A stretch of 64,000 nt of DNA from a virus: IMG/VR virus record IMGVR_UViG_3300037882_003336, positions 1-64,000 of that record; one strand, 5' to 3'. Numbering within the stretch: the first letter of the stretch is position 1; each line of letters begins with the position of its first letter. The translations under genes and the position numbers were made by a program. The notes under the pieces are model-generated. The model was given only the letters and a program-made list of their open reading frames with translations. It was not told the origin of the DNA and did not search any database. Positions 27,401-63,830 of the stretch are shown here, in pieces.

Positions 27401-29546
27401 CCGCGTCTTCACTCACATACGGGATGATGGCGGCGATCGGATTCTCCACGACCAACGCCAGTTCCGGCGTGAGGATCGACTCGTCTTCCGTGCCGTCCGG
27501 GTGCAGCGACTCCAGGACCTGCTCCGGGGCTTGGAACGACGCAGTGAGGAACCCGTTGCGCAGGAACACGAACCCGTTGAAATCACCGGCTGGGCGCACC
27601 AGCGTGTCACGCGGGGAGTCGAGCGGGCTCGTGGTGACCGGGATGGGCGTGAAGATGCCGGTCGTCAGGATGCCCCACGTGTAGAAGTCGCCATCATCTG
27701 CGTCCTGCTGGATGACGGTGGTAACATCGTCCGTTCCCACTTCCTCCCAGACGTTCGATGGTGGACCGTCCGGATCGTTGATGAGAGCCGTGTAGACGTA
27801 CCCGAGATAGTAAGCGAGATCGCCCTCCGCATAGGTGGTGTCGGCGTCCCATGTCGCCGGTACCGCGTTCCCATAGTCCTGATATGGCACCGCGCTCCAA
27901 GTGCCTGTGATAGGCGGAGTAGCGGGTGCGATGAACGGCTGGCGCACCAAGAACATGCTACCAGCGCTGGAGACGAACTGCCCCTCCGTGTAAGATTCCC
28001 CTTCCGTGTAGGCTAGTACCAAGACCCATGACAGGCTTCCGGTCTCGGTGATTTTCAAGCGCCAGAGACCGCCGAACCCATCGTCAAGGTTGACTTCGGA
28101 GAGCGCCAGCACGGGCGCGTACTTGACCTGATCTTGATGGCTCCACCCGGCTTCCACATCGCGGAGGGTGCGGGTAAGCGGGGTGAGGGTCTTGGCAAGC
28201 GCTTGCTGCTGGGCGTTTTCCTGATCGTGTCTGATCCAATCAACCTCAAAGTGCTGGTCGGGATCGGCGATGACTGGCGTGCCGTCAAGGGAACCGGTGA
28301 CCGGGTAGTCGGGGGCAGTACGACTCACGTCTCCATCCATCTCGGAATCCTCGTCCGAAATCTGAACGGGAATCGGGTGATAGCGAGTGTGGAACTGCTG
28401 AAGGTCAAACGCAACCTTCAGATCGAAGAGAGAGCTTTTGAACTTGATCTCCGACATCGGGCCGGAGATCGAAACCAACTGAATGTCCAACGTGGCTCCC
28501 AAGGTGATCTCCATGATCACCAAGTTGCCGTGGGTGCCGGGGGTGTTGGCTTCGAACCTGTAGGCGACGCTGGAATCTTCCAGCGCCAAAATCGTGACAC
28601 CCGCTCGCTCACCCGGCAAACCGCCAGTCAGTGGGTAAAGGCCAGGACGCAGCAGGTGGTTGACACGCTCTGTGAACCCGCCGAATGGCTGGCGACCGTT
28701 GATACGGTGGAACGCTTGATTGTGGGCGGCGTCCGGATGGCAAGAGAAGGTGACGCTGTAGCTTGGGCCATCATCCAGCACGAACGGTGTGTAGTTGGCG
28801 CTTGGAACCGGTTGCTGGAAAAGCTCCGATACGGTCGTGATGACGGAACCAGCGGAAAGGCGCGGCACCTCGCTCAACACCTCGCCGTCGTACCGACCGA
28901 CCAGAGGCCAGTACGGGTAGTCAACAGGCTCGTATGCGAAATCCTCGGCGTTGACATCAGACCCTGGATATTCTGGGTCACGCGGGCTGTACCGGCTCCA
29001 AAGTTCCAAAACCTTGAAATCGACGTAGCCAAGAATCTTCGCGATGGCGGTCAGGGAACTCGCTGATCCACGGATTGCGTTTCTTGGTACCGCCGTTGCG
29101 ATCAGACGCCTCAGGACAGGTATCGGGTGCTTCGCCGTGATCACTTCACCGGAAGACCCAGCGAGAGCGTTGAGAGCGGCACGTTCAAACGCCGCCTTGG
29201 TCAGGTCACCCACGATCCTCGGTAGGACTTGCTGTTGGAGGATAGCCTCTTCGGCATCGGTCCGCTCGCGCAGTTCCATTAGCGCTTCATACTGCGCCCA
29301 CAGTTCCTCGTCCTCTGGCGTAAACGCCCCCGCCTTCATGGGGTCGCGCAAACGCCCAAGCTCTCTCAGCTTCGTCACCACCCAATTGTGCTGGGAAGTG
29401 AGCCCGATCATCAGCGATCGGAGGATCCCCTGGTCACGGCTACGGATTACATAAGGCAACCATTCGAACAACTGATCTGGTGCCAGATCCGCGAGTCCAT
29501 AGTCGATGCGTGTAGCGAGTGTCTGAGTTCGCGGGTTGGAAGCCAT
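21468..29546 (-). CDS. Giant (2692 aa) baseplate-wedge/tail-fibre protein with CBM5/12-like and multiple LamG-like modules
   Basis: N-terminal wedge-like region; W...TY..GD.AYY.G motif; about five W.DAS...KW modules. Confidence 0.75.
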   Translation of the reverse strand: MASNPRTQTLATRIDYGLADLAPDQLFEWLPYVIRSRDQGILRSLMIGLTSQHNWVVTKLRELGRLRDPMKAGAFTPEDEELWAQYEALMELRERTDAEEAILQQQVLPRIVGDLTKAAFERAALNALAGSSGEVITAKHPIPVLRRLIATAVPRNAIRGSASSLTAIAKILGYVDFKVLELWSRYSPRDPEYPGSDVNAEDFAYEPVDYPYWPLVGRYDGEVLSEVPRLSAGSVITTVSELFQQPVPSANYTPFVLDDGPSYSVTFSCHPDAAHNQAFHRINGRQPFGGFTERVNHLLRPGLYPLTGGLPGERAGVTILALEDSSVAYRFEANTPGTHGNLVIMEITLGATLDIQLVSISGPMSEIKFKSSLFDLKVAFDLQQFHTRYHPIPVQISDEDSEMDGDVSRTAPDYPVTGSLDGTPVIADPDQHFEVDWIRHDQENAQQQALAKTLTPLTRTLRDVEAGWSHQDQVKYAPVLALSEVNLDDGFGGLWRLKITETGSLSWVLVLAYTEGESYTEGQFVSSAGSMFLVRQPFIAPATPPITGTWSAVPYQDYGNAVPATWDADTTYAEGDLAYYLGYVYTALINDPDGPPSNVWEEVGTDDVTTVIQQDADDGDFYTWGILTTGIFTPIPVTTSPLDSPRDTLVRPAGDFNGFVFLRNGFLTASFQAPEQVLESLHPDGTEDESILTPELALVVENPIAAIIPYVSEDAVSTDQPDPRLSFQTGPEDEIQVIPTHDDHSLTHVAFPFHSNDALGVDWVAREEDWGFWDGAFRGRDPRLRTAGVEPGIIEPVPTGYWTAGYPVYFMQRHGTFIYRARHGRDPLKAHYLRNSVDLTEGAELVSEGLLLDELPDGFAAQSGDGTLEPAATVDGDVEIENEGFFSSDQVSPDYDWLLPYRRWQMASLPWGGRFESWTTVSTSHFITPRNDSGDGAPNIGVDEDTGELIFCPVGQQILVAPTGESEVLVTVLGSGFDGNGRPFIEVDVAPPSADLTGRLWWKTLEFVTPEADQTGELRTTHPRAAEIEFRVYRVPEDGSSSVLQYSSTSDWQVNSVYEITLGYYSSELDVWVSALDWSAESFVEVELDTVLPRWDGFSGILTMTGGDRDAIELTILEPGLHWTDAEDSGIAGEFTPDGEWRGGLWPDNSSVYEPTRVLISRAPDNALAGWSSRTGLYSDQFVTLTRPEQAMGGWTGLTGEYFVTITGSAERSEHVTATWNALPGDYDADIAAIWDMSGLGGGDGDPVEDVPDSSGNGNDLESLGSPVLRLNIRNGLNAIEFDGPGSMLLRPAQNLFVEGSWDIADTSFAIVMVLKKTDAGEQALIRWGEETGDSYLKAYFRSAANAILWQTAPGEFLEDTNDPSENDDEWMVLSFVRNGTSVTVRENGLEIAASTTSAVFPDDITADFLLCPNFRGLLGEVHVYKRFNDMVAIETELANKWGIRRGLFDDQPDAIVKESRAVARWAGLGTGEYTESVSSAGMRLERARAAWASRTGEYAALVIQDLTAGEHSSANWSNRGTGFYQDTPRGATERTFAGWRNRTGEYGDLGMLLWYDASTLTGSNNDRIATLPNLARDGDMDLSQSDVATRPRLKVAVRNGLNGLFFDSAPSATVHTELLRWNGMVPWSAEQSAAGFAIALVVNPEVENPPFGYSSILKIFFGTGGSVLTVGRTTAVDPEDPQAYLTLPPSTVLFSEQPTGHWSLWYITVNEDLEYEFWINGEIVDSGTLSAPITGSYLTNISIGYGIGGHIGEVRFYDRGTNTAETIATIEELRIKWALRGGAFGEQYLEKAVLEHAMAGWRSQVGEYLAFFSTVDTKTERVLADWGVLGAEYEPELEYAERSQADWRVVDAVYDLAQPLTMGAPDRSQADWELAGPGDYEFRIADILDLEGHWDAHASFSATANGTAISSWVDTVASATLTQGTGLNQPIVVSNATYNGRTVVRFDGSNDVLSLATNDFDLTSDQTIVLVFRFTVNQNGRILGTYDGTNGWYVGIYGSIYDSTQAGSVHYMSSTRGANTVGNGMTGFSTPHHGGWNIVTITREAGVSTVRVNGVVQVSTISGHGNAATTGTFYIGGSSSFFAGDLAEVMLISRAVPDEESEALEVFLANKWGIELREAVPDAIPVTSGLTTWYDFRQEPIQAAYATLADRSGNGVNLAQGTGSLQPAASYGVFDYTLAGYAPDDTRIAATGLSNTILPSTGFTISILMSTDGPANFYYGFGFGVAGNTKNIRIGHLSTGKLIASLNDLRAESTTILTAGRWYHVVLIYGGGNWDDGTTGAKVYVDGVLSTMTYAGSGSNAWVPDASGNALALFGDYSGNTWRGRIGEVATWNRVLTDTEINLLSLYAKSKWAMRGLQVDALAFVPIVEDIQYGLQVDAMSFVPIVETLRESSIAVQALGTVIAASEDSEESIAVQALGTVIGAQNAVDDTLSLEGFQPVIILDETYPVPSTESLATVIASITAPVLNLDGPALSGSDDTALTTWTDVSGNARHATHLNLYSEIAPSLRTSVQNGLNAVQWKGVSKCFLAISSQDLFTTWGVTDRYTAYFVFSKTALHNGPAAVFNAASRQVSLYPYYTGSVTYADFGNTGSGGRLTTTTPLQSGWQVFTVCSDGEMLSLFRNHVLNNSAANSTAMAAGTSTFWVGTDASSAGVSGNFSGYIGDIIIFNTAHSHTTRTRMISALMNRWAIT

Positions 29547-41829: not shown

Positions 41830-42069
41830 ATGGACCGAGAACCAACCCCAGGAGACGTGTGGATGATCCGTGGTCAGCCCGGATATATCGACAGCATTGA
41901 CGGCTCCACGCTGTTGATATGCCACGCCAGCCAAGATGGTGACAAGTGGCGACCAGCCAACATTCACGAAGTCGGTGCCCACGTACTGTGGCTCGCTGAG
42001 ATCAGCAAAACCGACTTTGCCAAACTCTCCCAAGAAGGAGAGTTCCTAGGGAACTGGCCAAGGACTTAG
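41830..42069 (+). CDS. Hypothetical protein
   Basis: Start MDREPT directly after the upstream stop. Confidence 0.5.
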   Translation: MDREPTPGDVWMIRGQPGYIDSIDGSTLLICHASQDGDKWRPANIHEVGAHVLWLAEISKTDFAKLSQEGEFLGNWPRT

Positions 42070-43673
42070 TCCTGCTCAACCGTCAGGTCGCGACCCCAAG
42101 AGAACCGGATCGGGACGGTCAGGCGGTGGAGTTCATCCTTCACCTGGGGCTGTTCGAAATCCCAGAACCCTTGGATTCTGGAGGTGCCAGTGATGTGATT
42201 CGAAGTCGTCGCGTCTTCCCAGACCGAGATGCCGATTCCTTGGATGTCGTCCGCATTCCCGACGGAACTCGTGAAAACGGCTTCGTAGTCCAGGTAGTGG
42301 TTGCCAGCGGTGTAGGACGCTGGGGCGAGGGCGGCGTTGGAGGTGGAGGTACGACCGGCGTGGTTCTCGCCACCAGCCACCGGGAATGACCCCGGTGTAA
42401 CGTCGGCGTACAAACAGAGGTTGAAGAAACGAGCGGTTCCAGCGGTGCCTTTCCGGCTCGGCTCCATAATGGTCGCGTAGTCTTGAGCGCCAGTCACCGA
42501 CAGGTTGTTGTAAGTGGCGTTATAGCCAGCAGTTCCGGTGCTGAAATTGGCGATGTTCCACCAGAGCAGCTTGAACGTTGCAACGGTGTTGTTGTACACC
42601 GTGCCAACTGCACCAGCGTCAGTCAGGTTGGTGGCATCGGAAATCGTGATGGTATCGGCGGTCACCGAGTCGATCACATAGTCACCGTCATAGTCAACGG
42701 TGCCGTTGATCGTGATGCTGCCTCCCGCCAAATAATGGTGGTTGCCATCGGTCGTCACCACCCACTCGGTACCATCGCTCGTGACCGACAGGATGCCGTA
42801 CTCAACAGGCCAACCGGTGATATCGAATGGCTCGGTGACATGGTCGGCACCCAATGCCGAACCGCACTTCACGTAGAGTTCGTAACGGACGCGCAATTGT
42901 TGCCCGGTCAGGACTTCTTGGTCTGGAACCAGGAAAATCCGGCTCCACAGGTTGTTGCCAGCACCCGCTTGGCTGGAGAATCCGATTTCCGTGTAGGTCA
43001 CATCACCCACTTCTTCCGGGAAGTCGAAGGTGCGGCGGAACAGGACGGTGGCGGTGCCGGAGTCAGCAATATTATCGCAGGAAAGCGTGACAAGATCCGG
43101 GTCCGTGTAAACTGCGTAAGTGTTGCTCCGCTGAGTCTCCGTGCCCATCCCGATCTGGTCAACCCGGTAGATGATTACATCGTCAGCCACCACCGTTTGG
43201 GATCGATCCACGGTGACCGTGGTAGCGCTGGTGAATGTGACAACCTTCGCCTCTTCACCGGAATCCCAGCGAATCAGGCGTCCTTCATCGTTGATCGTGA
43301 AGTCCCGCGCACCGGAGGCTCTGGTTACTGTGGTTCCAGCCTGACTGTAAGTGCCGGTCACATCTTCTTTGGTCACCTCGGTGCCGGTACCACACACCGC
43401 ATAGGTGAGTTGGTCGCGCCAGCGTTCGGTCGCCAGACGGTCGAGTCCGCTGTCAAGAATGAGGTTGTTGATCCAGGGACTTTCCTTGACCACGTTCCCG
43501 TTTTCCACCACGTAGACCTTGGCACGACCACGCGCCAGAACCGGTGGCGCTTCGAGAAACCTGTGTCGGGCAGCAGCCGTCGGTTGTTTAAGCGCAGACC
43601 GACGACGCACCCTCTTGGGACGTGGAAGAATCGCGGACGGAATTAGCGGCGGAGTCATCCCGAAAAGTAGCAT
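42066..43673 (-). CDS. Tail collar/fibre-attachment-like structural protein
   Basis: NLILDSG, CGTGT and TEIG...LWSR motifs; Thr/Gly-rich beta inserts. Confidence 0.6.
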   Translation of the reverse strand: MLLFGMTPPLIPSAILPRPKRVRRRSALKQPTAAARHRFLEAPPVLARGRAKVYVVENGNVVKESPWINNLILDSGLDRLATERWRDQLTYAVCGTGTEVTKEDVTGTYSQAGTTVTRASGARDFTINDEGRLIRWDSGEEAKVVTFTSATTVTVDRSQTVVADDVIIYRVDQIGMGTETQRSNTYAVYTDPDLVTLSCDNIADSGTATVLFRRTFDFPEEVGDVTYTEIGFSSQAGAGNNLWSRIFLVPDQEVLTGQQLRVRYELYVKCGSALGADHVTEPFDITGWPVEYGILSVTSDGTEWVVTTDGNHHYLAGGSITINGTVDYDGDYVIDSVTADTITISDATNLTDAGAVGTVYNNTVATFKLLWWNIANFSTGTAGYNATYNNLSVTGAQDYATIMEPSRKGTAGTARFFNLCLYADVTPGSFPVAGGENHAGRTSTSNAALAPASYTAGNHYLDYEAVFTSSVGNADDIQGIGISVWEDATTSNHITGTSRIQGFWDFEQPQVKDELHRLTVPIRFSWGRDLTVEQD

Positions 43674-44235
43674 TTTTCTGGCGTAGCCTCTCCATAAGAG
43701 CTTTGGTCGCTTTACCGTGGCACGGGTGACAAAGGGTCCGGAGGTCTTTCAAACCACATTGTCCACCACCCTCCACCACCGGTATCACGTGGTCGCAGTC
43801 CCATCCGGTTGATCTGTGTGGCATCCACCCATTCCACTTCGGCCCAATCATCTCTCGCGCCTTACTCTTCACCTCTTTCCGCCATTTAGCGAACCAGCCT
43901 GGGGCTGGTATTCGTTCTATCATGGTCTCGGCAACCTTGAGGGCAGCGCGGTAAACTGCCATGAACTCGGTAAACATCTTGGACGCGTCGCACCCACAGC
44001 CAGCGCAGATTCCGCGATCCCTCTTCCACACCGCATGACGAGCCACTGAAGGGTTGTTGCGCAACATCCACGCATCCACGCACTCCTTGGAGTGCCATGT
44101 TCTCCTACCCTTTCCGGGCGGTCTCCCGCACCCGCAACTGCAGAGTGGGGAACCGTCTTCCGCGAACTTTTTGGTGGCGTACTGTCCCCTGCTCGTGCTC
44201 ACCATAAGACTTATGGCTTCCCGAAGATCTTCCAT
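43588..44235 (-). CDS. HNH endonuclease
   Basis: RD.G.C..C...WDCDHVIPVVEGGG...LRTLC..CH. Confidence 0.85.
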   Translation of the reverse strand: MEDLREAISLMVSTSRGQYATKKFAEDGSPLCSCGCGRPPGKGRRTWHSKECVDAWMLRNNPSVARHAVWKRDRGICAGCGCDASKMFTEFMAVYRAALKVAETMIERIPAPGWFAKWRKEVKSKAREMIGPKWNGWMPHRSTGWDCDHVIPVVEGGGQCGLKDLRTLCHPCHGKATKALMERLRQKNATFRDDSAANSVRDSSTSQEGASSVCA

Positions 44236-44456
44236 AACGGTGTGCCCAGATTGTTCGACTCATCTTCGTCTTTCGCCAAGGCGATAGCGGAACTCACCTG
44301 TTCCTGAAGATCCGCTTCCCCGTCGTCCATTTGCACCCGCGTTCCATCGGGTCTGACCGCCTCAACGGACGCTGAGTCCTTTTCCACCGATATCACGATG
44401 GACCATCCATCCACGAGCACCTCGGCAGCTTTGTTGACGGTCTCTTCCAGTGTCAT
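44211..44456 (-). CDS. Hypothetical protein
   Basis: ATGA overlap with purB. Confidence 0.55.
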   Translation of the reverse strand: MTLEETVNKAAEVLVDGWSIVISVEKDSASVEAVRPDGTRVQMDDGEADLQEQVSSAIALAKDEDESNNLGTPLWKIFGKP

Positions 44457-45688
44457 ATGGAGGGATTGGCGTTAGAGTGTGAAGCCAGTTTGATGAGGCG
44501 AATGAGGTCCGGTGACACCGTGTGCTTTGCGTCGCCCATCTTCTTCAGTGCAATGGCCTTGGCCTTTGCACGACTCAATGTCGGGTCTTTGACGCGCTCC
44601 CCCACCATGAATGCCTGAGCCATCACGGATGCCGGAACCACTGGTGGATGCTGTGTGACGTGAACCCTTTCCAGGGTGCTGGTGAGAAGGGTGGTCTGGT
44701 GGCAAAGCACGTGGAAAAGATCTGGCCACACGACGTTTTCGACGGCACTGTGCGAGATGTCGCGTTCATTCCACAATTCCACGTTTTCCAAGAGCGAGTT
44801 CGTATACCCGCGCACCAAGCGAGCCATCCCGCAAACACGCTCCAGCCCCACTGGGTTTGGGCGAGATTCCTTACCGGGCATCGAGCTACTCGTGGAGGTA
44901 CCGGCGTTGCGGTGCCCAGCCGAATATACCAATTCCTCGACACCATCTTGAAGCAAGAGGCGAATATCGAGTGCGATCCGCGCCAAAACTCCAGAATACA
45001 CGGCGAGCATCTGTGCAAATGCTGCGTAAAAGTGGCGGGGGACGCACTGAGTGGATGGGTTGACGATGAACAGACTTTCCTCAATGTTCGGGCAGGATGT
45101 GGTAGAGAGCGGAGACAGACTGAGGCTGTACAGGTCCGGGCGGTAGTAGTAACACCCTACTGAACCACCGAACTTCACAGGCATTTGGGTGAGAGTAAAC
45201 CTTCTCAAGGAGTCTTCGATCTCCCAAAACCAACACTCCAACTTGTGCTTCCATGGGATTGGCTCCGCGAACCTCCCGTGAGTTCTCGCCATGAGTACGC
45301 GACGACTATCCGCGGGGGTGTCCTCTTCCATCACAAGCATGCGACGAATTTGGCCAGTGAGCTTCCCCGCCAAACCCGACAGTCGGTTCCGGTATTCAAC
45401 CAGCTGGATTGACAGGGCGGTGTCGGTGACATCGCTGGTCGTGAGGCCAAGGTGGAGGTTCTGAATCCCGATGTACGGTTCGATGCACCGCAAGACCGCG
45501 TCGAGTTCGTGGCCAGATTCAGCGACAAAGCTATTGAAGTCCGTCCAGCAACAGTGGTTGCGTAGCAGTTCCTTAGCTTCTCCGTCCGGGTCTTTGGAGC
45601 CCGCAAGGAAAAGACTGATCTTAACCCACAAGAAGCGGGTTGATTCCGATACCCACTTGATGTCCTTATCTTCGTACTTTGGTAGCAT
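44453..45688 (-). CDS. purB: Adenylosuccinate lyase (divergent)
   Basis: GHE, HLGLTTSDV.DTA, RTHG, GGSVG, TQ..PR, SSSMPGK...NP...ER..G.AR and ERDISHS.VE motifs. Confidence 0.9.
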   Translation of the reverse strand: MLPKYEDKDIKWVSESTRFLWVKISLFLAGSKDPDGEAKELLRNHCCWTDFNSFVAESGHELDAVLRCIEPYIGIQNLHLGLTTSDVTDTALSIQLVEYRNRLSGLAGKLTGQIRRMLVMEEDTPADSRRVLMARTHGRFAEPIPWKHKLECWFWEIEDSLRRFTLTQMPVKFGGSVGCYYYRPDLYSLSLSPLSTTSCPNIEESLFIVNPSTQCVPRHFYAAFAQMLAVYSGVLARIALDIRLLLQDGVEELVYSAGHRNAGTSTSSSMPGKESRPNPVGLERVCGMARLVRGYTNSLLENVELWNERDISHSAVENVVWPDLFHVLCHQTTLLTSTLERVHVTQHPPVVPASVMAQAFMVGERVKDPTLSRAKAKAIALKKMGDAKHTVSPDLIRLIKLASHSNANPSI

Positions 45689-45709
45689 CCAAAGTAAGAA
45701 CGCCGCCCA

Positions 45710-46144
45710 CTACTCGCGTGGCGTAATACCCCAGAGATTCCACTGACCATCATGGAACCTGAGTTCAATGATGGATTCATCGGCAGCGGTACCGTCAAAG
45801 GTTCGCTGGAAAGCGTCTACGGAAGGCAGGTCTTCACCGTTCGAGTTGTAAACAATGAAGTCGATGCCGGTCCAGACGCCGGACGCAATGTAAGGCCGGA
45901 TCGACACCACGTCCCCGGTATTGCGCCCGACTATATCCACCACCAGGGTCCGGTTTCCTGGAGTACCGCTGAGTTCCGCCCAGATCGCTGCATTGCCACC
46001 TGTTGGGGTCACCTCCACATCAGTGGTGTTCGGCATGGAGACTTCCTGGTATGAGCTACCAGGAGACGAACCGGAGGATGGGGTGAACGTCCACGACTGC
46101 GGGTTGCGGATGTCGGAGTCGTACGGGAAAGATGGTAAAGACAT
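45710..46144 (-). CDS. Hypothetical structural protein
   Basis: Beta-rich, acidic. Confidence 0.55.
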   Translation of the reverse strand: MSLPSFPYDSDIRNPQSWTFTPSSGSSPGSSYQEVSMPNTTDVEVTPTGGNAAIWAELSGTPGNRTLVVDIVGRNTGDVVSIRPYIASGVWTGIDFIVYNSNGEDLPSVDAFQRTFDGTAADESIIELRFHDGQWNLWGITPRE

Positions 46145-46153
46145 CGGTGATAA

Positions 46154-47488
46154 TTAGGGTAGTTTCCCGGTGAAGTCGCCGGGGGCCAGCGAGTTACAGA
46201 GTGTGTAAAGGGCTCGCTCAAACGTCTCTGGATCAGATGGAACACGACCGAAGAAGGCGGCTCGGAAATACTGACGCGTATAGGCACCAACCGCCCCGTT
46301 ATCATTGGTCGTGCAGATGTAAAGGTCGAGTTCCGGAAGTGCTCCGGTTGCAACGCCAGCAGTAGCTAGGACGGTCCTGGAGGCGGTCTGCATGCGCGCC
46401 ATCTCAATGCCGTCTGTGTTGCTGACAATCGACAGCAAGCCCGTCCGGTCCACCGAGTCCGTGTTGGAGATAGTGGTGGCACCGACCTGTGCCGAAATAG
46501 TCGAGGCACTCGGAAGCGTAAACGCGATGCCATCGGAGTTCAAACGACAGCCCATCACTCGACGGTTGGCGGTTTCGGTACCAGCCGTCACATACCCGAA
46601 GTAGCAATTGTTGAGCAACATGCCAACCTCGGACGGGGTGACATCAATGTCGAAATACCCGGTGGTGCCTGGGGACCTGAAGGACCGCTCGTTCGACCCG
46701 GCGATCCCGAACCCAACCGATCCGAAAAATTCACCTCTGGTGGCGGGTTTGTTGATGTTGAACCCGCAGTAGATTTTGCTGGCAACCGTGTCGATGGTTC
46801 CGGGGCTGGTTTCCATAACCCACGCGGGCAGCATCACGAACGCGTGTGGACCCATCTCGGTGAGGGACTGGTCGGCAGCTGTGAAGAACGTGTTCACCAT
46901 GGCGGTGAAGCCCTCGTCCAGTGTGAGCCCAGCTTCCTCCAATACCGCCCGGTAGGCAAGCGTCCGGATGTGGAGCGCCGATCCATCTGGCGGAGGGTCA
47001 CTTGGGTTTGGCGCAACTGCCATCACGTCCAGCCCGAACCATGGGCGCGGGAACATGAACGGAGAGCGCCTCAAGATCGCTGCCTGCCCCATGTCGCGGA
47101 TGCGCTCATAAAAGTCTGACACCCAAGCCCTTGTGTATTCCAAATCCGAACCGGAGGTCCAAGTGGGCGCGGGAACCCGAATCTCCCCGCCCATCGTCAT
47201 CTTGAAGTACAGCACAGGACCGTTGGAGAACCCGTCCTTTTCCTTGAACTGCATTACCCACCCGTCTGTGTTCATCCACCCGGCCAACATGCACCGATTG
47301 GTCTCACGAGCCCTCGGCATTTTGGTGAGAGCTTCGTTGAACCACCACACAATCGTGCCGTAGTCGATGTGGCGGAACCCGCCCGAGTAAGAACCGTTCG
47401 AGTCGAACGGCGGCATCCCGTTGCCGGAATGAGCAAGAAACTCGGTTACCCTACCCCAACCGGTGGACGCGTCGTATTCAACAGGCAC
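46154..47488 (-). CDS. Hypothetical tail/fibre-associated protein
   Basis: Thr/Gly-rich, lectin-like C-terminal half. Confidence 0.55.
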   Translation of the reverse strand: MPVEYDASTGWGRVTEFLAHSGNGMPPFDSNGSYSGGFRHIDYGTIVWWFNEALTKMPRARETNRCMLAGWMNTDGWVMQFKEKDGFSNGPVLYFKMTMGGEIRVPAPTWTSGSDLEYTRAWVSDFYERIRDMGQAAILRRSPFMFPRPWFGLDVMAVAPNPSDPPPDGSALHIRTLAYRAVLEEAGLTLDEGFTAMVNTFFTAADQSLTEMGPHAFVMLPAWVMETSPGTIDTVASKIYCGFNINKPATRGEFFGSVGFGIAGSNERSFRSPGTTGYFDIDVTPSEVGMLLNNCYFGYVTAGTETANRRVMGCRLNSDGIAFTLPSASTISAQVGATTISNTDSVDRTGLLSIVSNTDGIEMARMQTASRTVLATAGVATGALPELDLYICTTNDNGAVGAYTRQYFRAAFFGRVPSDPETFERALYTLCNSLAPGDFTGKLP

Positions 47489-47496
47489 CCCAAGAC

Positions 47497-48729
47497 CTAC
47501 TCGTGACTGGCGTTAATGAACATCTTTTTGATCCAGATGGTCTTGATCTGCAGTCGCCCCTGCCCATACCGCTGCCTGCGCAGATGCCCGCGCCTCCAGT
47601 GCATCCTGACACTTCCACCACTTCCTTCACTATCACTGCCGGAGGACCGATAGTTGCGTCCGATAAAGTTCGGGCTCCACAGTTCGTCGACACGCTTTTT
47701 ATGACGCTTAATGCCACCTGCCCTTGAAATGAACGACGGTTCGATGAGTTCCGGGCAGGCGTGCATGATAAGGATCAACTGCATCGCAAGGTAGCAAAAC
47801 CCGGTCTGGTCGGTGATGTTGTTGTGTTTCCTGACCTCCATGCTGCCGAATTGGGTCTTGGGCATGAAGTGAGAAGCAACGTGGAGGTTGCTGCCCTCGA
47901 ATGAAATGAACACCATGAACCCGTCGGCTGGAACGTCGTCGAGCACCATTGGGGCCAGCTTTAGTTCAGTCTCGACATCCAGTCGCTTGATTGCCTCTTC
48001 GGTGGCATGCGGGAGTGGGTAGACGTCAGGAGAGACGTGGCGACCCGGCTCGACCCGAATAACGGTGAGCGCGGTCACGCGAGTCTCCCTACCTCCGCTC
48101 ATCGCCACGCACTCCGGAGGCATTACGAACATCATCGCTTCGTGTGGCCATGGGGTCTCGGCAATGTCCTCACCCTTTGGCAGATCGGTAGCGATGGCAT
48201 CCTTGTAGAACTCACTCGACACGTAAAACACAGGGGTGTCAGTGCGTGCCGCGATCCCGGTAGCGGCCAGCGTGATCATGCGCATTGCGTGATCCTCGTC
48301 ATTCTTTGGCAGGTGGTATGCACGCTGCAGGAACATGTGCGCCACCCCACGGATCGAGACAGCAGGGTTGATGTATCCCCACACGTTCCGGTAATTCCGC
48401 GTCAACATCTTCCTAGACACGTGATCGACGATGTCGAGCAACATCCGGTTGGACATCCGGTCCACATCCTCATCCTCATGAGTGGTCTCAAGCCCAAGCA
48501 GCTTTTTTAGCAGCGTGATAGTGTATTCCTTGCCTTTGAGTTCCGAGACCGCCTTGGTCTGGGCCAACTTGAAGATACTGTGGAACAGATGCTTTGGGAC
48601 CATGGACTTGGCCTTCTCCATGAACTCATCGGGTGTCATCACCTGCCCAGCAGACTCCATGAGCAGGGAGGATACAGCGTCCACGTACTTGGCGGTGGAC
48701 ATCTGTTGACGGAGAGCGGACTTGGCCAT
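47497..48729 (-). CDS. Hypothetical protein with C-terminal HWRRGHxR motif
   Basis: SVRMHWRRGHLRRQ..G.GR....IWIK; N-terminal LLMES. Confidence 0.7.
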   Translation of the reverse strand: MAKSALRQQMSTAKYVDAVSSLLMESAGQVMTPDEFMEKAKSMVPKHLFHSIFKLAQTKAVSELKGKEYTITLLKKLLGLETTHEDEDVDRMSNRMLLDIVDHVSRKMLTRNYRNVWGYINPAVSIRGVAHMFLQRAYHLPKNDEDHAMRMITLAATGIAARTDTPVFYVSSEFYKDAIATDLPKGEDIAETPWPHEAMMFVMPPECVAMSGGRETRVTALTVIRVEPGRHVSPDVYPLPHATEEAIKRLDVETELKLAPMVLDDVPADGFMVFISFEGSNLHVASHFMPKTQFGSMEVRKHNNITDQTGFCYLAMQLILIMHACPELIEPSFISRAGGIKRHKKRVDELWSPNFIGRNYRSSGSDSEGSGGSVRMHWRRGHLRRQRYGQGRLQIKTIWIKKMFINASHE

Positions 48730-48733
48730 GGGA

Positions 48734-49420
48734 TCAGTTCTTGGCGACCAGCTTAGTGGACTTTTTGGCGGGGATCTTTTTGGCAACCGTCTTTGGCTTG
48801 GTCTTAGCCTTGGCGACCGTCTTTGGCTTGGAGGTGGTCTTGACAAGGACGCGGGGGCTGGACGCCTTGGCGGTAGTCTTTTTCTTCGTCGCCACCGGAG
48901 TCTTTTTGGTCACCTTCACCATATCTCCATCGTTGGTCAGTGGCACCGGGTCAGCGGGTTGTGGAATCAGACCACCATCTTCAGCACCAAATGGGGATTC
49001 GCTGGGGAGCGGCAACTCCAGGGTGTCTTTGGATATCCCATACAGCGGCAAACCGGGCGGCTTGTCGGGGGTGATGGTGGGGGTAGCGGCGGAAGTGTCG
49101 TCCCCACCGTCCTCTTCGGCGTCGCCTTCACCCTTTCCCTCGCTGATGTTTGGCAGCAGCTGCTGTTCCTCTTCCGTGCTGTTGGCCAGCGGGTTGGCGG
49201 GAACCGGTGGGTAGGTGGGCGGCGTGGGTGCAGCGGGGGTACCTGGGGTACCGGGCTTCTGGTCGCCGAACTTGGCTTCGAATTCGAACAAGCTGCTTTC
49301 CCCCTTGCTGCGCATGAAGACGGTCGGGGACCTGCCTTGGATGGTACTTTCGAGGTGGATGATCCAGACGAACTGGGCAGTGACGATGACGCTCAGGATG
49401 GCGATAGTGATGGTTCTCAT
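48734..49420 (-). CDS. Membrane-anchored Pro-rich protein with histone-like Lys-rich tail
   Basis: N-terminal TM segment; KPKTVAK occurs twice in a K/T/A-rich C-terminus. Confidence 0.7.
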   Translation of the reverse strand: MRTITIAILSVIVTAQFVWIIHLESTIQGRSPTVFMRSKGESSLFEFEAKFGDQKPGTPGTPAAPTPPTYPPVPANPLANSTEEEQQLLPNISEGKGEGDAEEDGGDDTSAATPTITPDKPPGLPLYGISKDTLELPLPSESPFGAEDGGLIPQPADPVPLTNDGDMVKVTKKTPVATKKKTTAKASSPRVLVKTTSKPKTVAKAKTKPKTVAKKIPAKKSTKLVAKN

Positions 49421-49457
49421 GGTGTTGGCGATGTTGATTGTGGTTAGACTGGGAATG

Positions 49458-49826
49458 TTAAAACGGCACGTAATCGGTGGCTTCGGTATCCTCGACGATT
49501 GAAGCCGCCACCAAAGTAGCACGGCTCGGGAAAATCTCGACGTAGGTGTCGGAATCGTGACCATGCGTCGCGTAAAACTCTGCCACCCAAACATCAGCGG
49601 CGGCGTGATCCTCGACGCGGTGAATCTGAGTCGTGACCTGACCAGCGTAAGCGTCGGTCGAACGGCAGTAGTAGGAATGCGAAACCGTGATCCGGATCGG
49701 ACCGCTGCCGGTAGCCTCGACATCGCAGGAAAGCTCGCGAGCCACTTGCTCAGCTTCTGCAAGACAATTGCGGAGTTCGACTGAAGATCCATCGTGTGGG
49801 AAGCGGAGGATGTTGTTGTTGCGCAT
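49458..49826 (-). CDS. Hypothetical early protein
   Basis: ATG lies 5 nt after TATAAT. Confidence 0.7.
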   Translation of the reverse strand: MRNNNILRFPHDGSSVELRNCLAEAEQVARELSCDVEATGSGPIRITVSHSYYCRSTDAYAGQVTTQIHRVEDHAAADVWVAEFYATHGHDSDTYVEIFPSRATLVAASIVEDTEATDYVPF

Positions 49827-49831
49827 CCCCC

Positions 49832-49860
49832 ATTATACCACACAAGAAAACTCTTGTCAA
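49832..49860 (-). promoter_or_regulatory. Sigma70-type early promoter (leaderless)
   Basis: TTGACA-17 nt-TATAAT with extended TGn. Confidence 0.9.
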
Positions 49861-50120
49861 GTAGTATGGTCCGCGTACCGCCTAAGCAACACAAAAATGG
49901 GGTCGTTGCAGGGGGCATCATCCAGACTTCTCAGGTCGTCTAACTGGATGTGACGGCCAAGGCGCTTTTCAGTGCAGAGCGTGCAGATGATAAGCCTGCG
50001 GTTCCCGCCATTGATAGCACTCCACAGGTCCGGCCTGAGAATCGGCCCGAGCCCACAATGGCCACAGTCCTCGCACTTGTAGTAGCGATCCAGATTCTTC
50101 GGTCTCGGTTTTTCGTTCAT
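49857..50120 (-). CDS. Small zinc-finger protein
   Basis: C..C...LW.....C..C.E.RLGR....DL...PCN. Confidence 0.6.
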   Translation of the reverse strand: MNEKPRPKNLDRYYKCEDCGHCGLGPILRPDLWSAINGGNRRLIICTLCTEKRLGRHIQLDDLRSLDDAPCNDPIFVLLRRYADHTT

Positions 50121-50327
50121 CACTTTGATACGGGTCGGGGGTGGCCGACCCCTCCCAGGCTCGACCACCCCCGATTCATGAGTCCAACGGCAAGCCCTCC
50201 CAGTCCGACCGTTGGAAATTTGAGCGAAGATGGCCAGCCCTCCCAGTCCGACCACCCTCGCGCCACCAATTGCGGTGACATCAAACAAGAAAAACGTGCT
50301 TAGCGTGTATTTGGCGACAGCGTAAGC

Positions 50328-50912
50328 TCACATAGCCGCTGCCTCTGGCATTGACGGGAACCCCGGATACGCCTTGTCGCGGAACGTCTCTTTCACCATG
50401 TCCAACCGACCTTTGAACTCCCGGTCAATGCGGGCGTTTTCGCGGTCAAACGCATCCAGATACAACAGTTCCTCTTCCGCCCAAGCAGTGCGAACCGACT
50501 TTTCATCCTGTTCCGGGTGTCGTAGGATAAGCGCACGCCCAATCCCAGTGAACTTCCAATCAACCATCACACCCCGCCTACGAAGCTTATCCACCACTTG
50601 GTTGGTACCGCTCTTCCCAAGCAGGCTCGCCAACACCGGAACACCGTGCTTGAAAATAAACGGATCACACTTACCGAACTCTTCGCCCAGTGTGCATTCG
50701 CCACGAGCGTCGTAGGAATCACCTACTGACTTTGGCACCACCGTGAGAACCGGTGGTGCCACTATCACGGGTCCAAGTTCGTCATCCTCCAATACCAGTT
50801 CCTCAGTATCGTCAACCAATTCTTCCTCCACCTCTTCTGGTTCAATCTCACGAAGCCCAGCGTACTGATCTTCGTGAGCCTCGTCTGCAAATGGGTCGTA
50901 GTCGATCCGCAT
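50328..50912 (-). CDS. Hypothetical protein with acidic N-terminus
   Basis: Start MRIDYD. Confidence 0.6.
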   Translation of the reverse strand: MRIDYDPFADEAHEDQYAGLREIEPEEVEEELVDDTEELVLEDDELGPVIVAPPVLTVVPKSVGDSYDARGECTLGEEFGKCDPFIFKHGVPVLASLLGKSGTNQVVDKLRRRGVMVDWKFTGIGRALILRHPEQDEKSVRTAWAEEELLYLDAFDRENARIDREFKGRLDMVKETFRDKAYPGFPSMPEAAAM

Positions 50913-50913
50913 A

Positions 50914-51141
50914 TCAGGTCTGGATGGTGGTAATAAAGTCGAACGCATCTTCCATGGTCTCAAACGGCTCTTCCCTCACTGCAGCCTGTTCGTGTTCTGC
51001 TCCCCGGTACACCATCCAACCTCTGGGTTCCAGGACAGCGGCGGCAATGAAGTTGCTGGCTGCTGACAAGCCGTAGTAGGTGAGGTAGCGTGCGGGCACG
51101 CGGCGAAAGTACATAGCGTCTTCTGGAATGTTCTCAACCAT
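50914..51141 (-). CDS. Hypothetical protein
   Basis: Operon packing downstream of purZ. Confidence 0.5.
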   Translation of the reverse strand: MVENIPEDAMYFRRVPARYLTYYGLSAASNFIAAAVLEPRGWMVYRGAEHEQAAVREEPFETMEDAFDFITTIQT

Positions 51142-51145
51142 TTCG

Positions 51146-52414
51146 TTATAGGGTGGAAGCGTGGTCTGTCTCGGGAGACCAGTTGAAGAGCACGTGCTCT
51201 TCACCACAGTAAACGTCCGAATCGGCCATGAACTTAGTAAGGCTTTTTCCGTGCTCGTGTGCTGCTTTTGGGTCTCCGTTCAGGTAGTTGAGGAACGTTA
51301 GGAACATAAATACACCACCCGGTGCGTTGTTCAGTCTCACGAAATCCCGCCATGCGATTTCGCTCATGGTCGCGATGCGGCGTGGGAGCTTGGTGAGAGT
51401 TGTGATTTCGCTCGGCACGTCCCAGCCAGCGTAAGACCGGATTTCGTCCCATGTGAGTTCGGTCTGGTCAGTTTCCCAACCCCCGCTAGACCCTTCGACC
51501 ACTTGGATTTCGTCGCCTCTACCGTCGGCGCGGAGTGCGTCGATTTCGACTTGGGTCAGAAACGCCCCGTTGTGGAGGTATCGGTTGCTGGCAATGCGAA
51601 TTGGGAAGGTCCGGTTGACGCCAACGACCGAATTGAGCAACGCGGGGGCCACACAGGTCTCGCTGAGGAATGAAGCCACCGAAGTGGACCGGCTCGTGCA
51701 GTACGGGTAGTGCGGGCCGTAATTGGAAAGCTGAAAGCCCTGTGACCCGTCGAGCAGCGCCCCGTTGTAACAATTGGCGATGGTTTCGTTGATGTCACCG
51801 CGTGGCTGCGCGTACTCCCACACCGCATTCACATCACGAGCCATGGTGGCCCTCCGAAGCGCACGTTTGGCGCGGGCGGCTCCGGAGCCGGACCCGGTGG
51901 TGCCAGTGCGAGACAATGCCAAGTCCCGGTCAGCGATGGGCTTTCCGTTGAAGTCGTGGGTTCCGTTCTCCAATCCTTCGTCCTCTGGCGTGACGATCGC
52001 GGCCAGAGGGTGAATGAAAAGGTGGGTGCGGGGAACTTCCAGCATTTCCACTTCTTTCTTCAGGTCTTCCGGCTTGAACGCCGCGCCCGGTCCAATGAAG
52101 ATGTAGGGGCGATAGTCCTGATAGCCCCAATAAAACGCACCGGCTGGAAGCACCTTCACCACCCCGCTTCGGCTCACCGAAGAATCGGTAACGGTGTGGC
52201 TAGAATTCCGCGAGTTGGCGGTCAATAGCACCCCCGGTCGCCCAATCTTGGCGAGCAAGGCGCTTGCACACCCCTTGGCCTCAGAACCGGTCTGAGCACC
52301 CATGACCACTGAAACCCGGTTCGGCTTGAAGATGTTCTTGACGAGCCCATCTCGCTCAAAGAGCCTCTGGTTGTCATTGAAGTGTCTGGACCAAGCTTTG
52401 GGATCGTACGTCAT
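51146..52414 (-). CDS. purZ: Adenylosuccinate synthetase paralog, PurZ-type (N6-succino-2-amino-2'-deoxyadenylate synthase)
   Basis: GAQTGSEAKG (Ser at the PurA Asp13 position), NSSHT, GTTGSG.G, GSQGF.L, YPYCTSR, RTFPIR, TTLTKLPRR and TFLNYL. Confidence 0.8.
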   Translation of the reverse strand: MTYDPKAWSRHFNDNQRLFERDGLVKNIFKPNRVSVVMGAQTGSEAKGCASALLAKIGRPGVLLTANSRNSSHTVTDSSVSRSGVVKVLPAGAFYWGYQDYRPYIFIGPGAAFKPEDLKKEVEMLEVPRTHLFIHPLAAIVTPEDEGLENGTHDFNGKPIADRDLALSRTGTTGSGSGAARAKRALRRATMARDVNAVWEYAQPRGDINETIANCYNGALLDGSQGFQLSNYGPHYPYCTSRSTSVASFLSETCVAPALLNSVVGVNRTFPIRIASNRYLHNGAFLTQVEIDALRADGRGDEIQVVEGSSGGWETDQTELTWDEIRSYAGWDVPSEITTLTKLPRRIATMSEIAWRDFVRLNNAPGGVFMFLTFLNYLNGDPKAAHEHGKSLTKFMADSDVYCGEEHVLFNWSPETDHASTL

Positions 52415-52436
52415 AAAGTGTAGCAGAAAACGGTGT

Positions 52437-52628
52437 TTACTCGCGGGTCTTCCGATTGAAGAACTGGTAGATGCGCTCACGCAGTGAACCCAGCAGAGAC
52501 AGGGTCGCGGTAGGTGCCCATGTTGGGCATTTTGGATGAGCCGACAAGCCCATGTCGCACTGGTATGCGCCATAGGCGAAGTTGGCAGAGTAACGGCAGG
52601 TGTTGCAGGACCGTGGAAGATGTTTCAC
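52437..52628 (-). CDS. Small Cys-rich protein
   Basis: C..C...C...C..W pattern. Confidence 0.5.
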   Translation of the reverse strand: MKHLPRSCNTCRYSANFAYGAYQCDMGLSAHPKCPTWAPTATLSLLGSLRERIYQFFNRKTRE

Positions 52629-52836: not shown

Positions 52837-53546
52837 AATGGAACTTGTACGCGTTTTTCGACGATCGTGGCAGTTGGGTTGATGGCACGGCATTTGTCGA
52901 GTGCTGACTCCATAGTGTTGTACTTCTGTGTGTTAAGTTCCCTAACCGAAGAATTCACATAGTAGTGTTGACCCTCAGACCACTTGGAAATCGTAAACAC
53001 CTCCTGTTTGTAAAGCCCAACCATATCACCATTCCACTCCATGGAGTCTGTCACCTTTTCAATGGGGTCGGTGCGCATCCCACCTTGGAAGTTCACAAAG
53101 ACGTTGTCCTCCTTGTCGAGCAGCGCCTTGGCAGTCGCAGCCCACATAGTGCCAAACTCAGCCCACGACGGATGCTTTCCTTCTTTTACTGCCATATCCA
53201 TGTGAATATTGCGTTCCTGCAGCACTTTGAACTGCTTAGTGAACCAGTCTCGGTACAGATGTAGGCGCGGTAAGTCGAGCTTGGTGAGGTGAATAAACCA
53301 CGCTTTGTAGTCATTCGGTTCCAGAGAGGTGTCAAGCAACGCCAGAGTTATGGGCGAAGGCCGATCGGGTGGCTCCACGCCAACGATTTCGGCCATTGCT
53401 CGGACTTTCCGGGCTTGCTGTTGAGCCTTTTTCACAATCCTCGGGCTCATACCGGATTCATCGACGATCTTGGCGTCGCGTTCGGCCATGTCGGCTAGAG
53501 TTGAGGCAAACTCGCGGAGTTCCTCGATGGTGAATTCAGGGCTCAT
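52833..53546 (-). CDS. Hypothetical protein
   Basis: ATGA overlaps within an early operon. Confidence 0.65.
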   Translation of the reverse strand: MSPEFTIEELREFASTLADMAERDAKIVDESGMSPRIVKKAQQQARKVRAMAEIVGVEPPDRPSPITLALLDTSLEPNDYKAWFIHLTKLDLPRLHLYRDWFTKQFKVLQERNIHMDMAVKEGKHPSWAEFGTMWAATAKALLDKEDNVFVNFQGGMRTDPIEKVTDSMEWNGDMVGLYKQEVFTISKWSEGQHYYVNSSVRELNTQKYNTMESALDKCRAINPTATIVEKRVQVPL

Positions 53547-54427
53547 TGTGGTTTCAGGGTTTCAGCTAGTGCGTCGAGTTTGATGCGGAGTTCCTCTTCC
53601 TTGTAACAAGAGTCGTTCCATTTATCTTCATCGCGGAGGCTAAGAACTCCGTTCCGGCAGATGGTGGCGAGCAGTTCCACATCCAGTGCGTCAAGCTCCC
53701 ACGACTCGTTGCCGTACTTGGCGACGTACTCGGGGGCGCGACTGTCGCTCATCTTGGTGGGGTTGGGGATGAGATTGTGCCGTTCGATCTGGCGCATGGT
53801 GAGCGCTGCCCGGTGCACCGTGATGTCGGACTGGGAGAACAAAGCGAGGCGGTCCGCCACGTCCGTGCTCATGTGAACTCCGCTCGGATCGAAGTCCCCG
53901 AAGTAGATCACGTGGCATTTCTTCCTGCCCGCCACGGTGCGCTCCTGCAGTTCCTTGCCAAGGTCGTACATCGCGGTGGCACTGCTGTACCCCTTGTTGG
54001 AGTGGAATGGCACTTCCAGCTTTCGGCACACTGGAGCCAATACGCCCTCAAGCGCCTGCTTCTCGCATGCCACCACCACGTAATTTGTCTGGTCCTGCCA
54101 TTTGTCGATCTTGAAGCCCTCGACGGTGCTGCGCATGATGTGGTATGGGGAATCCCAAGTCTGGACGATATGAGGTACCCGTCCCCGATCCACGATCGCG
54201 TCCCAGTCGATCAGCCCCGCCATCCGTCCGTCGGCGACCGCGCCCTTCAGCCGGTCGTATGACTCCTGCGAGTTCGGGTAGACGTTGTCCTTGACGCCTT
54301 GGTAGAAAAGCTGGCGCAAGGAGAGTGAATACCCGCGAGCCAAATAATCCGAACAGACCCCGTCAGCCCACGTGATCAGGCGCATGGTCTCGCTGCGGAA
54401 CGCTTTGTCGATGAACTTTTCGTACAT
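53543..54427 (-). CDS. Topoisomerase VI-A/Spo11-like wHTH-Toprim protein
   Basis: LRQLFYQ, CEK, KGYSS, YFGDFDPSG and WELDAL motifs. Confidence 0.8.
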   Translation of the reverse strand: MYEKFIDKAFRSETMRLITWADGVCSDYLARGYSLSLRQLFYQGVKDNVYPNSQESYDRLKGAVADGRMAGLIDWDAIVDRGRVPHIVQTWDSPYHIMRSTVEGFKIDKWQDQTNYVVVACEKQALEGVLAPVCRKLEVPFHSNKGYSSATAMYDLGKELQERTVAGRKKCHVIYFGDFDPSGVHMSTDVADRLALFSQSDITVHRAALTMRQIERHNLIPNPTKMSDSRAPEYVAKYGNESWELDALDVELLATICRNGVLSLRDEDKWNDSCYKEEELRIKLDALAETLKPQ

Positions 54428-62016: not shown

Positions 62017-62169
62017 CTATTCGTTGTTGATTACGTCACCATCCGCCAGTTCCACCGAGCAGTCAAGGTGGAGACGAGCCCCGGCTTCTCCAAACTCGTC
62101 GGGTACGCTGGGTTGACCGTACTCGATGGGCTTGTCGCAATAGGCGCAGTGGTTAGATGGGTTTGTCAT
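62017..62169 (-). CDS. Small zinc-finger protein (50 aa, below the ORF-track cutoff)
   Basis: MTNPSNHCAYCDKPI...HLDC; ATGA overlap with the ATPase gene. Confidence 0.5.
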   Translation of the reverse strand: MTNPSNHCAYCDKPIEYGQPSVPDEFGEAGARLHLDCSVELADGDVINNE

Positions 62170-63830
62170 CCGGGCAAGAATTGAAGGGCGTAAGAGAGGT
62201 TCTCGGTGGTGGCGGTATCGTTACCGAGACGTTTGGTGAGGCGCAGGAGATTCTTGATGGTACGTGGCGAAATCGGGTTCTTGTCGTTCCGCTTGTCGGC
62301 GTCCTTCTCGCTCTGTGGTCTGCTCTGGAATTCTTCGAACAGGATCTCCAGAAACTGGGTGGTTTCCTTGGCGGTGACCTTGAGGTCGAACAGGCCAGCG
62401 AACTGCTTGAGAATTTGGGCAGCGGCTTCCCGGTCCGGGTTGGAGTAGGTGAGTACCGCACTGCACCGGCTCAGCACCGCGTCGTCGATCAGCAAATCCC
62501 GGTTGGTGGTCATGAAGATCACGCCATTGAAATACTCAAGGGTGCGGAGCAACGTTCCCACGATCGCGTTTTGTTCGATGTTGGTGCCGCGCTCATACAC
62601 GTAGATGTCAACCTCATCGATCAGCAGGATGGCACCCCATCGCTGGGCGCGGGCGAACACTTCCTTAAGGTTCCCCTCCAGCGCTTTCGCGGTCACTCCG
62701 AGTTGGTCGGACTGCACCCGGTACAGTGGCACCCCGGCTCGCTCTGAAAACGCCTCAGCGGTCATAGTCTTTCCAGTACCTGGAGAACCCTTCGCCATGA
62801 TGATCGTGCCACCACTCTTTCCCTTCACGAAGTCAGCCTTGAGGGTGTCAGGGTTGCTAACCAACAGGTTGACGAGGTCCTTGTGGTATTGTGGAATGAT
62901 GAGGCGATTGATGAGAACCTCATCGTACTGATATGGCGAAACCCAAGTGCACGGCACCCACATGTGGTCGTGAGTTTCGAGGTTGAACACATACAGGTAT
63001 GGATGGATCGGGATTTCGAACACGTCCACCTCGTCACCACCACGGAGGTTCGGTAGCTTCATCTTGCGCGACGACTCCCCTTTAGACCTGAACGCCGAGA
63101 TGTCGTTGATGACTTTGAAGTTGCTGACTCCCGTCAGGTACTCGCGACTGGTGCTGGTATAACGCCAGTCCTCGTTACTTGGCAACCAACTGGTGGTGAG
63201 CAAAAACTGGGTGTTAACTTGAGCCATGTAGTCCTCCCACTGTTTCAGGGTCTGATGGTACTGCTGTACGATGTCTTCCCCCACAAACCCGTACCCGTGT
63301 TGGGCGAGAAGCGAAGAAACCGTCATACCACGGCGCTGCTTTTCCTGATTGAACAAGTCGTTGTCGTGGAATGTGATTCCGGTCGAGCGTTGTTCCCCCT
63401 TGGTCCAATAAACCAAGTTAACGCGCACGGAAGCCGGAACATCCTTTTGGGATGGCGTATAGACGGCTCCCGTCGTCAGATAAGGCAGCGGGATGCCGAT
63501 GTCGTTGTTGTGCTGAAAGAGCCAACGGGTGGCGCTCTGGACCATGCAGGCTTGCGTGATCGCTTCAGCGAGTGCGTCCAGACGGGTCACGGGGGCATGC
63601 GGATCATCGACCGCCTTCCGGACCAAGGAGAGCTTCTGGAGCACTCCGTTGAACACCTGACTGTTCTTGGAGGCGAATGTGTGGACCGCACGGATGAACT
63701 CTCCGTCCACATGATAAGTCTCGAAGGTTGCTTCCTTCTCCCGGCTCCAGCCGGTTTCGGTCATCGCGGGGTGGTTGATGCCAGCGGCTTTGAGAGCTTC
63801 GTATTGTTCAGAAGAAAACGAGATAGTCAT
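62166..63830 (-). CDS. AAA+ ATPase
   Basis: Walker A GSPGTGKT, Walker B LLIDE, sensor TTNR and Arg finger SR. Confidence 0.9.
   Translation of the reverse strand: MTISFSSEQYEALKAAGINHPAMTETGWSREKEATFETYHVDGEFIRAVHTFASKNSQVFNGVLQKLSLVRKAVDDPHAPVTRLDALAEAITQACMVQSATRWLFQHNNDIGIPLPYLTTGAVYTPSQKDVPASVRVNLVYWTKGEQRSTGITFHDNDLFNQEKQRRGMTVSSLLAQHGYGFVGEDIVQQYHQTLKQWEDYMAQVNTQFLLTTSWLPSNEDWRYTSTSREYLTGVSNFKVINDISAFRSKGESSRKMKLPNLRGGDEVDVFEIPIHPYLYVFNLETHDHMWVPCTWVSPYQYDEVLINRLIIPQYHKDLVNLLVSNPDTLKADFVKGKSGGTIIMAKGSPGTGKTMTAEAFSERAGVPLYRVQSDQLGVTAKALEGNLKEVFARAQRWGAILLIDEVDIYVYERGTNIEQNAIVGTLLRTLEYFNGVIFMTTNRDLLIDDAVLSRCSAVLTYSNPDREAAAQILKQFAGLFDLKVTAKETTQFLEILFEEFQSRPQSEKDADKRNDKNPISPRTIKNLLRLTKRLGNDTATTENLSYALQFLPG

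Follow-up and report, generated by a model that had tools for sequence, protein, structure and literature searches.

A divergent PurB-family lyase encoded near a PurZ-type synthetase on a phage contig

The window analysed here, positions 1-64,000 of IMG/VR record IMGVR_UViG_3300037882_003336 (78,666 bp in full, ~39% complete by CheckV), is part of a freshwater phage contig and carries a gene that is, by homology and predicted fold, a PurB-family lyase with an altered signature loop and phosphate pocket. The ORF (44453-45688, minus strand, 411 aa, ATG start) belongs to a short-form phage clade of PurB-like adenylosuccinate lyases and lies 5.46 kb (45688 to 51146) from a PurZ-type synthetase encoded upstream of it, matching the 5.5 kb spacing of the original prediction. 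With moderate confidence, we consider the conversion of dSMP to dZMP, alongside this neighbouring synthetase, to be the most likely role of the lyase. Pairing of this kind is common, has already been annotated in phages Ghobes, Hiyaa and MaF61 and is not special to this contig; judged by its sequence, the window lyase appears to be a new and unusually divergent example of an annotated kind of phage lyase. The alteration of its phosphate pocket and signature loop is the feature most worth follow-up.

Identity, fold and catalytic residues of the lyase

The ORF matched Pfam Lyase_1 (PF00206; E 1e-16), and its best NCBIfam model was purB TIGR00928 (E 3e-39, 135 bits), at a score far below the curated equivalog cut-off (326.2 bits) and over profile positions 71-342 of 436 only. 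The solved structures most closely related by sequence were all adenylosuccinate lyases (T. maritima 1c3u, E 4e-30, residues 12-346). An AlphaFold2 model, for which 30 homologs served as input, reached a mean pLDDT of 83, and its top Foldseek matches were likewise adenylosuccinate lyases (TM about 0.7, probability 1.00), the one exception being trans-aconitate decarboxylase, a lyase from the same superfamily. Both the Lyase_1 domain and the three-domain ADSL fold were recovered for the predicted protein, upholding the initial call of a divergent PurB, and the ORF is the only PurB homolog on the whole IMG/VR record. Adenylosuccinate lyase cleaves adenylosuccinate, SAICAR or dSMP to fumarate and a nucleotide; it is active as a tetramer, and its active site needs three subunits.

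Fold and domain order are the same as in bacterial short-type PurB (T. maritima 1C3C/1C3U, S. aureus 2X75 and B. anthracis 2PFM), to which the window lyase is about 30% identical over residues 12-346, and equivalents of His68, His89, His141, the Ser-Ser loop, Lys268, Asn270, Glu275, Arg301 and Ser306 are common to both. Unlike the bacterial enzymes, the window lyase has a three-residue insertion between the signature Lys and Asn, Lys in place of Arg4, Asn in place of Arg310 and Gly in place of the signature His. Its C-terminal domain is also shorter than theirs and gave no ADSL_C (PF10397) match at E up to 1, leaving Lyase_1 as the sole Pfam domain detected. This domain had been described at the outset as short and divergent: its divergence is consistent with the missing ADSL_C match and with the low pLDDT of residues 345-411 (about 40-70), whereas its shortness is normal for the phage clade, in which lyases measure 353-400 aa.

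The catalytic His and Ser-loop motifs, first read as intact, proved so in the alignments. Across alignments of 30 and 162 homologs, the B. subtilis/S. aureus residues His68, His89, His141, Gln212, Ser262/263, Lys268, Asn270, Glu275, Arg301 and Ser306 were invariant or nearly so, and every window counterpart was kept, comprising the catalytic residues H60, H79, H137, S267/S268, K273, N278 and E283 together with Q214, R309 and S314. H60, H137, S267, K273 and E283 fall in invariant columns.

Partner synthetase and lyase-synthetase pairing across phages

The neighbouring 475-aa ORF (51146-52573, minus strand) is a homolog of PurZ-type succino-amino-deoxyadenylate synthetases. It matched phrog_1211 (PurZ family; E 3e-35), and its best NCBIfam model was PurZ NF038379 at 137.9 bits, below the cut-off of 300, compared with 114 bits for archaeal-type PurA and 65 bits for bacterial purA. 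Ser97 of its P-loop (GAQTGS97EAKG) occupies the Asp13 position of PurA and shares an alignment column with Ser14 of phiVC8 PurZ and the equivalent Ser of Hiyaa and MaF61. Published counts for this position give Asp in 99% of PurA proteins, whereas each of 147 phage PurZ/PurZ0 sequences has Ser (PMC12884076). Both the P-loop residue and the best-scoring model therefore bear out the original designation of this neighbour as purZ. The homologous part begins near residue 87, the first 86 residues having no counterpart in the PurZ of phiVC8, Hiyaa or MaF61, so the ORF as annotated probably extends too far at its 5' end, and translation probably begins at an internal Met, for instance M54. MaF61 is the cultured phage whose synthetase is closest to that of the window, and it also has a lyase. 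Two insertions are common to the window and MaF61 synthetases and are lacking in the PurZ proteins of small phages.

Lyase and synthetase are annotated as a pair in the GenBank entries of Gordonia phage Ghobes (gp36 and gp50), Streptomyces phage Hiyaa (gp76 and gp67, 4.4 kb apart) and Flavobacterium phage MaF61 (ORF149 and ORF141). Like the window, each of these phages has its own lyase with a Ser-type synthetase a few kb away; their lyases are 24-32% identical to that of the window and, unlike it, have the canonical signature. Phages of the Ghobes and Hiyaa types also have a dUTPase-family gene beside PurZ, which the window does not. Neither discussion nor biochemical characterization of the phage lyase was found in the literature searched, the 2021 Science PurZ papers lying outside that search. 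The published descriptions of the Z pathway that were searched have host PurB performing the dSMP-to-dZMP step, two of the papers saying so explicitly, and the Z-cluster phages phiVC8, S-2L and SH-Ab 15497 combine PurZ, MazZ, DatZ and DpoZ/PrimPol with the host enzyme. The original statement that characterized Z phages rely on host PurB matches this literature, and phiVC8 has no PurB homolog. In common with the window, the Z cluster of these three phages has a PurZ-type synthetase whose Asp13 position is occupied by Ser; unlike them, the window has a lyase, whilst DatZ, a MazG-type pyrophosphatase and DpoZ were not found on the sequenced part.

A lyase profile recovered 80 loci from IMG/VR, and 79 of their records could be searched for a synthetase. 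Synthetase homologs were present in 52 of these 79 records bearing a PurB-like gene, and in 15 of the 16 lyase-bearing records that were at least 90% complete. Classified by the curated PurZ cut-off or, below it, by the P-loop residue, the 52 partners comprised 37 Ser-type/PurZ-type (19 of them over the PurZ cut-off), 12 Asp-type/PurA-like and 3 unclassified proteins; for scale, 481 PF00709 homologs have been reported in 53,887 NCBI viruses (PMC12884076). The anticipated co-occurrence of purB with purZ was thus seen for 37 of the 52 partners, but the lyase is not confined to PurZ genomes: 12 partners are PurA-type. A dUTPase-family gene was found in all 19 lyase-bearing records with a synthetase over the PurZ cut-off (among G026-G079, loci L033-L086), mostly within a few kb of the synthetase, and in 29 of the 37 Ser-type records versus 2 of the 12 Asp-type records. 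YfbR-like DatZ was rare in the lyase-bearing set (5 of 49 records), and dutZ has been tied to PurZ0 genomes (PMC12884076). With a dUTPase-family gene in every one of the 19 records and YfbR-like DatZ in almost none, the phage lyase looks like a regular part of a DutZ-type (PurZ0-like) gene set. In two records (G057 and G058, loci L198 and L199), the contigs measure 193 and 315 kb and the synthetase homologs lie inside much longer reading frames (811-821 aa), with matches that start at model position 34-64; these frames may encode fusion proteins.

In the reverse direction, a lyase was present in 3 of the 80 IMG/VR records whose synthetase is nearest to that of the window, and in 1 of the 31 near-complete records. 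Many of these 80 are genomes of ~40 kb, phiVC8 and VP2 included, and the low rate is in line with published reports that phages of the phiVC8 type depend on host PurB. No lyase was found on the contigs, one of them 256 kb long and 70% complete, that carry the four synthetases most similar to that of the window (34-44% identity), indicating that the lyase gene is sporadic even in this lineage. A single-protein lyase search of the nearest-synthetase records gave no match and, having also missed the G087 lyase recovered by the family model, was too insensitive to be informative. Single-protein scans of viral contigs with the window lyase and with its nearest relative, P0015, recovered no relative, nor did a metagenome scan with a two-sequence alignment.

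A FastTree phylogeny was built from 208 sequences, comprising the window lyase, 73 viral and 80 cellular sequences and 54 unnamed representatives. The window lyase fell in a 40-leaf clade with zero cellular members (support 0.92) and, within it, in an 11-leaf subclade (support 0.96) whose three viral members all had Ser-type partners. Its sister was P0015 (support 0.98), and its terminal branch was long (1.20; median 0.35). Of the 19 lyases with a partner over the PurZ cut-off, 18 grouped in a second virus-only clade, which has 37 leaves. The broad virus-only clade of the window lyase includes MaF61 ORF149 and the G087 lyase, which are sisters, as well as nine cases with Asp-type partners. The PurB-like ORF of G087 (locus L285, 443 aa) has no recognizable 'MP' signature in a simple pattern search.

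From the homology, fold, catalytic residues and selection observed for the lyase, the PurZ hallmark of its neighbour and the co-occurrence of the two genes, we infer dSMP as the probable substrate and a possible presence of Z in the phage DNA. The ORF would then encode an adenylosuccinate lyase that is active although far diverged, from a short-form clade specific to phages, and that would remove fumarate by beta-elimination to yield dZMP in the second step of the PurZ route. The Ser267/268 loop would serve as the base and His137 as the acid, while the succinyl group would be held by Lys273, Asn278 and Glu283. Such a phage copy would make flux through the lyase step independent of host PurB levels, in an accessory rather than obligatory capacity, because most PurZ phages are without it. 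Set against this reading are the score of the synthetase under the PurZ cut-off, the insertion, K4, N318 and G272 of the lyase, the four lyase-free relatives of the synthetase, the 12 Asp-type partners and, weakly, the lack of dATP-clearing and Z-polymerase homologs on the incomplete contig. Many phages carry a lyase of their own that travels with the synthetase, at a step assigned to host PurB in the publications searched. A phage lyase would remove one host dependency and so bear on host range, on reconstituting the pathway in other cells to make synthetic Z-DNA and on the choice of genes for predicting Z genomes from metagenomes.

The Asp-type partners, 12 of 52 overall and nine within the broad virus-only clade of the window lyase, would fit with an ordinary purine-supply pair: as auxiliary metabolic genes, synthetase and lyase would raise (d)AMP/AMP in the infected cell, and the phage DNA would be free of Z substitution. 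A supply role is also favoured by the lack of any recognized dATP-removing enzyme on the contig: searches of the 78.7-kb contig for dATP-clearing and Z-polymerase families (PF13023, PF12917, PF01966, PF03819, PF00692, PF05014 and PF00476) returned none of HD_3, YfbR-like, HD, MazG, dUTPase, NDT or PolA. A search for DUF550/MazZ (PF04447) gave no match on the contig and none in control genomes either, and was therefore uninformative. The autonomous Z pathway suggested in the original prediction likewise goes beyond the gene content observed, in that no homolog of DatZ, a MazG-type pyrophosphatase, DutZ, DmtZ or DpoZ was detected on the contig; at a completeness of only about 39%, these absences are weak evidence. 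The window synthetase itself has Ser rather than Asp at the catalytic position and a PurZ score twice its purA score (138 versus 65 bits), and we regard a simple purine-supply function as unlikely.

Signature loop, phosphate-binding residues and selection

In the window lyase, the signature SSxMPxKxNP reads SSSMPGK-ESR-PNP. All signature residues are present, with G272 in place of the usual His, and Lys273 and Asn278 are separated by four residues rather than the usual one. In the homolog alignments the insertion, E274-S275-R276, corresponds to nine bases at 44861-44869 (minus strand) and is absent from about 310 homologs; at most 2 of 162 database sequences have any residue at this point, and the 73 distinct viral and 80 cellular sequences all have a gap there. 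Two further departures concern residues that hold the nucleotide phosphate. Asn318, whose codon lies at 44735-44737 (minus strand), aligns with Arg310 of S. aureus PurB, a position at which Arg is found in 159 of 162 database, 80 of 80 cellular and 73 of 73 viral homologs. Lys4 likewise replaces an arginine that is present in 79 of 79 cellular and 71 of 72 viral homologs. In the AMP-bound structure of S. aureus PurB, the phosphate is held by Arg4, Tyr5, Asn276, Ser306 and Arg310, with Asp69 orienting Arg310 (PMC2917274), so that two phosphate ligands are altered in the window lyase. The ribose 2'-OH contacts a main-chain carbonyl in the same enzyme (PMC2917274), and a side-chain signature for deoxy preference is therefore not expected. 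Tyr5, Ser314 and every residue contacting the succinyl group or the base are conserved. The nearest relative, P0015 (378 aa, 37% identity), shares K4, has Lys at the Arg310 position and is without the insertion; among the viral and cellular sequences aligned, K4 is confined to the window lyase and P0015, and N318 to the window lyase. As an extreme sequence variant, the window lyase is of use mainly for probing the contributions of the signature loop and of the phosphate-binding arginines.

Logan contigs from four public runs, three of them labelled freshwater metagenomes, were placed on positions 44200-46200; no RNA run was listed among the public runs matching the region. A 260-nt contig of run X1 covers 44658-44914 with 13 substitutions and no gap, bridging the nine inserted bases with 45 bases to spare, and this roughly 95% identical variant retains both the insertion and N318 (codon AAC in the window and AAT in X1, Asn either way). 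Across three X1 contigs, from a single run at low depth (3-4), there are 15 differences, 13 of them synonymous and 11 in the third position of their codon (binomial P = 0.002). Contigs of runs X2-X4 span only short pieces of the gene and are identical to the window. Sequencing errors would not be expected to cluster at silent sites. We conclude that the lyase gene is real and its frame maintained by purifying selection. The signature insertion noted in the original prediction is likewise real, three residues long and unmatched among the aligned homologs. An assembly error as its source was ruled out by the independent X1 variant contig spanning it gap-free.

Persistence of these altered features under purifying selection, together with the long terminal branch, raises the question of changed substrate recognition: the lineage of the window lyase and P0015 may have rebuilt its 5'-phosphate pocket (R4K; R310 to N or K) and the window lyase lengthened its loop, so that the substrate would be some succinylated compound that is not a standard nucleoside 5'-monophosphate. 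The restricted occurrence of K4, N318 and the Lys of P0015, at sites whose arginines contact the AMP phosphate in the S. aureus enzyme (PMC2917274), would be in keeping with such a shift, but Lys is still able to bind phosphate, the conserved Tyr5, Ser314 and succinyl- and base-contacting residues speak against it, and the neighbouring genes, having no family matches, suggest no alternative substrate; we consider this reading improbable. A rebuilt pocket and a lengthened loop, the latter with a new Arg in the window lyase, maintained under purifying selection could also mean a novel substrate preference, and it is conceivable, if doubtful, that the window and P0015 lyases prefer a substrate unlike that of any characterized PurB, for example strictly dSMP or a differently phosphorylated form. 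In that event the window lyase would be dedicated to the Z pathway and not simply a PurB taken over from a host. A gene copy in decay or without catalytic activity, retained merely by chance or as a structural protein, would account for three changed near-invariant positions, an insertion in the catalytic loop and a score far below the curated purB cut-off, but is highly improbable given the intact frame, the full set of primary catalytic residues and the largely synonymous differences from the related strain.

Surrounding genes

Directly downstream of the lyase, an 81-aa ORF with no family match (44211-44456, minus strand) begins with an ATG overlapping the stop codon of the lyase (ATGA). The second gene on the downstream side encodes an HNH endonuclease (43588-44235, minus strand; Pfam HNH, phrog_11604); it overlaps the end of a tail-fibre-like gene (42066-43673), and its product may be a homing endonuclease beside the lyase. 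A perfect 12/12 sigma-70 promoter match with TG, identified by consensus alone, lies at 49832-49860 (minus strand) and could drive the minus-strand run of genes that includes the lyase. Most other genes of the region had no Pfam, PHROG or NCBIfam family match, and 20 kb of the window searched by megablast against a phage collection gave no match. Elsewhere in the window, all on the minus strand, are a single ORF of 2692 aa (21468-29546), a gene matching phrog_6247 'DNA topoisomerase' (53543-54427; E 6e-90) and a gene matching phrog_29662 'ATP-dependent protease', an AAA ATPase (62166-63830; E 3e-85).
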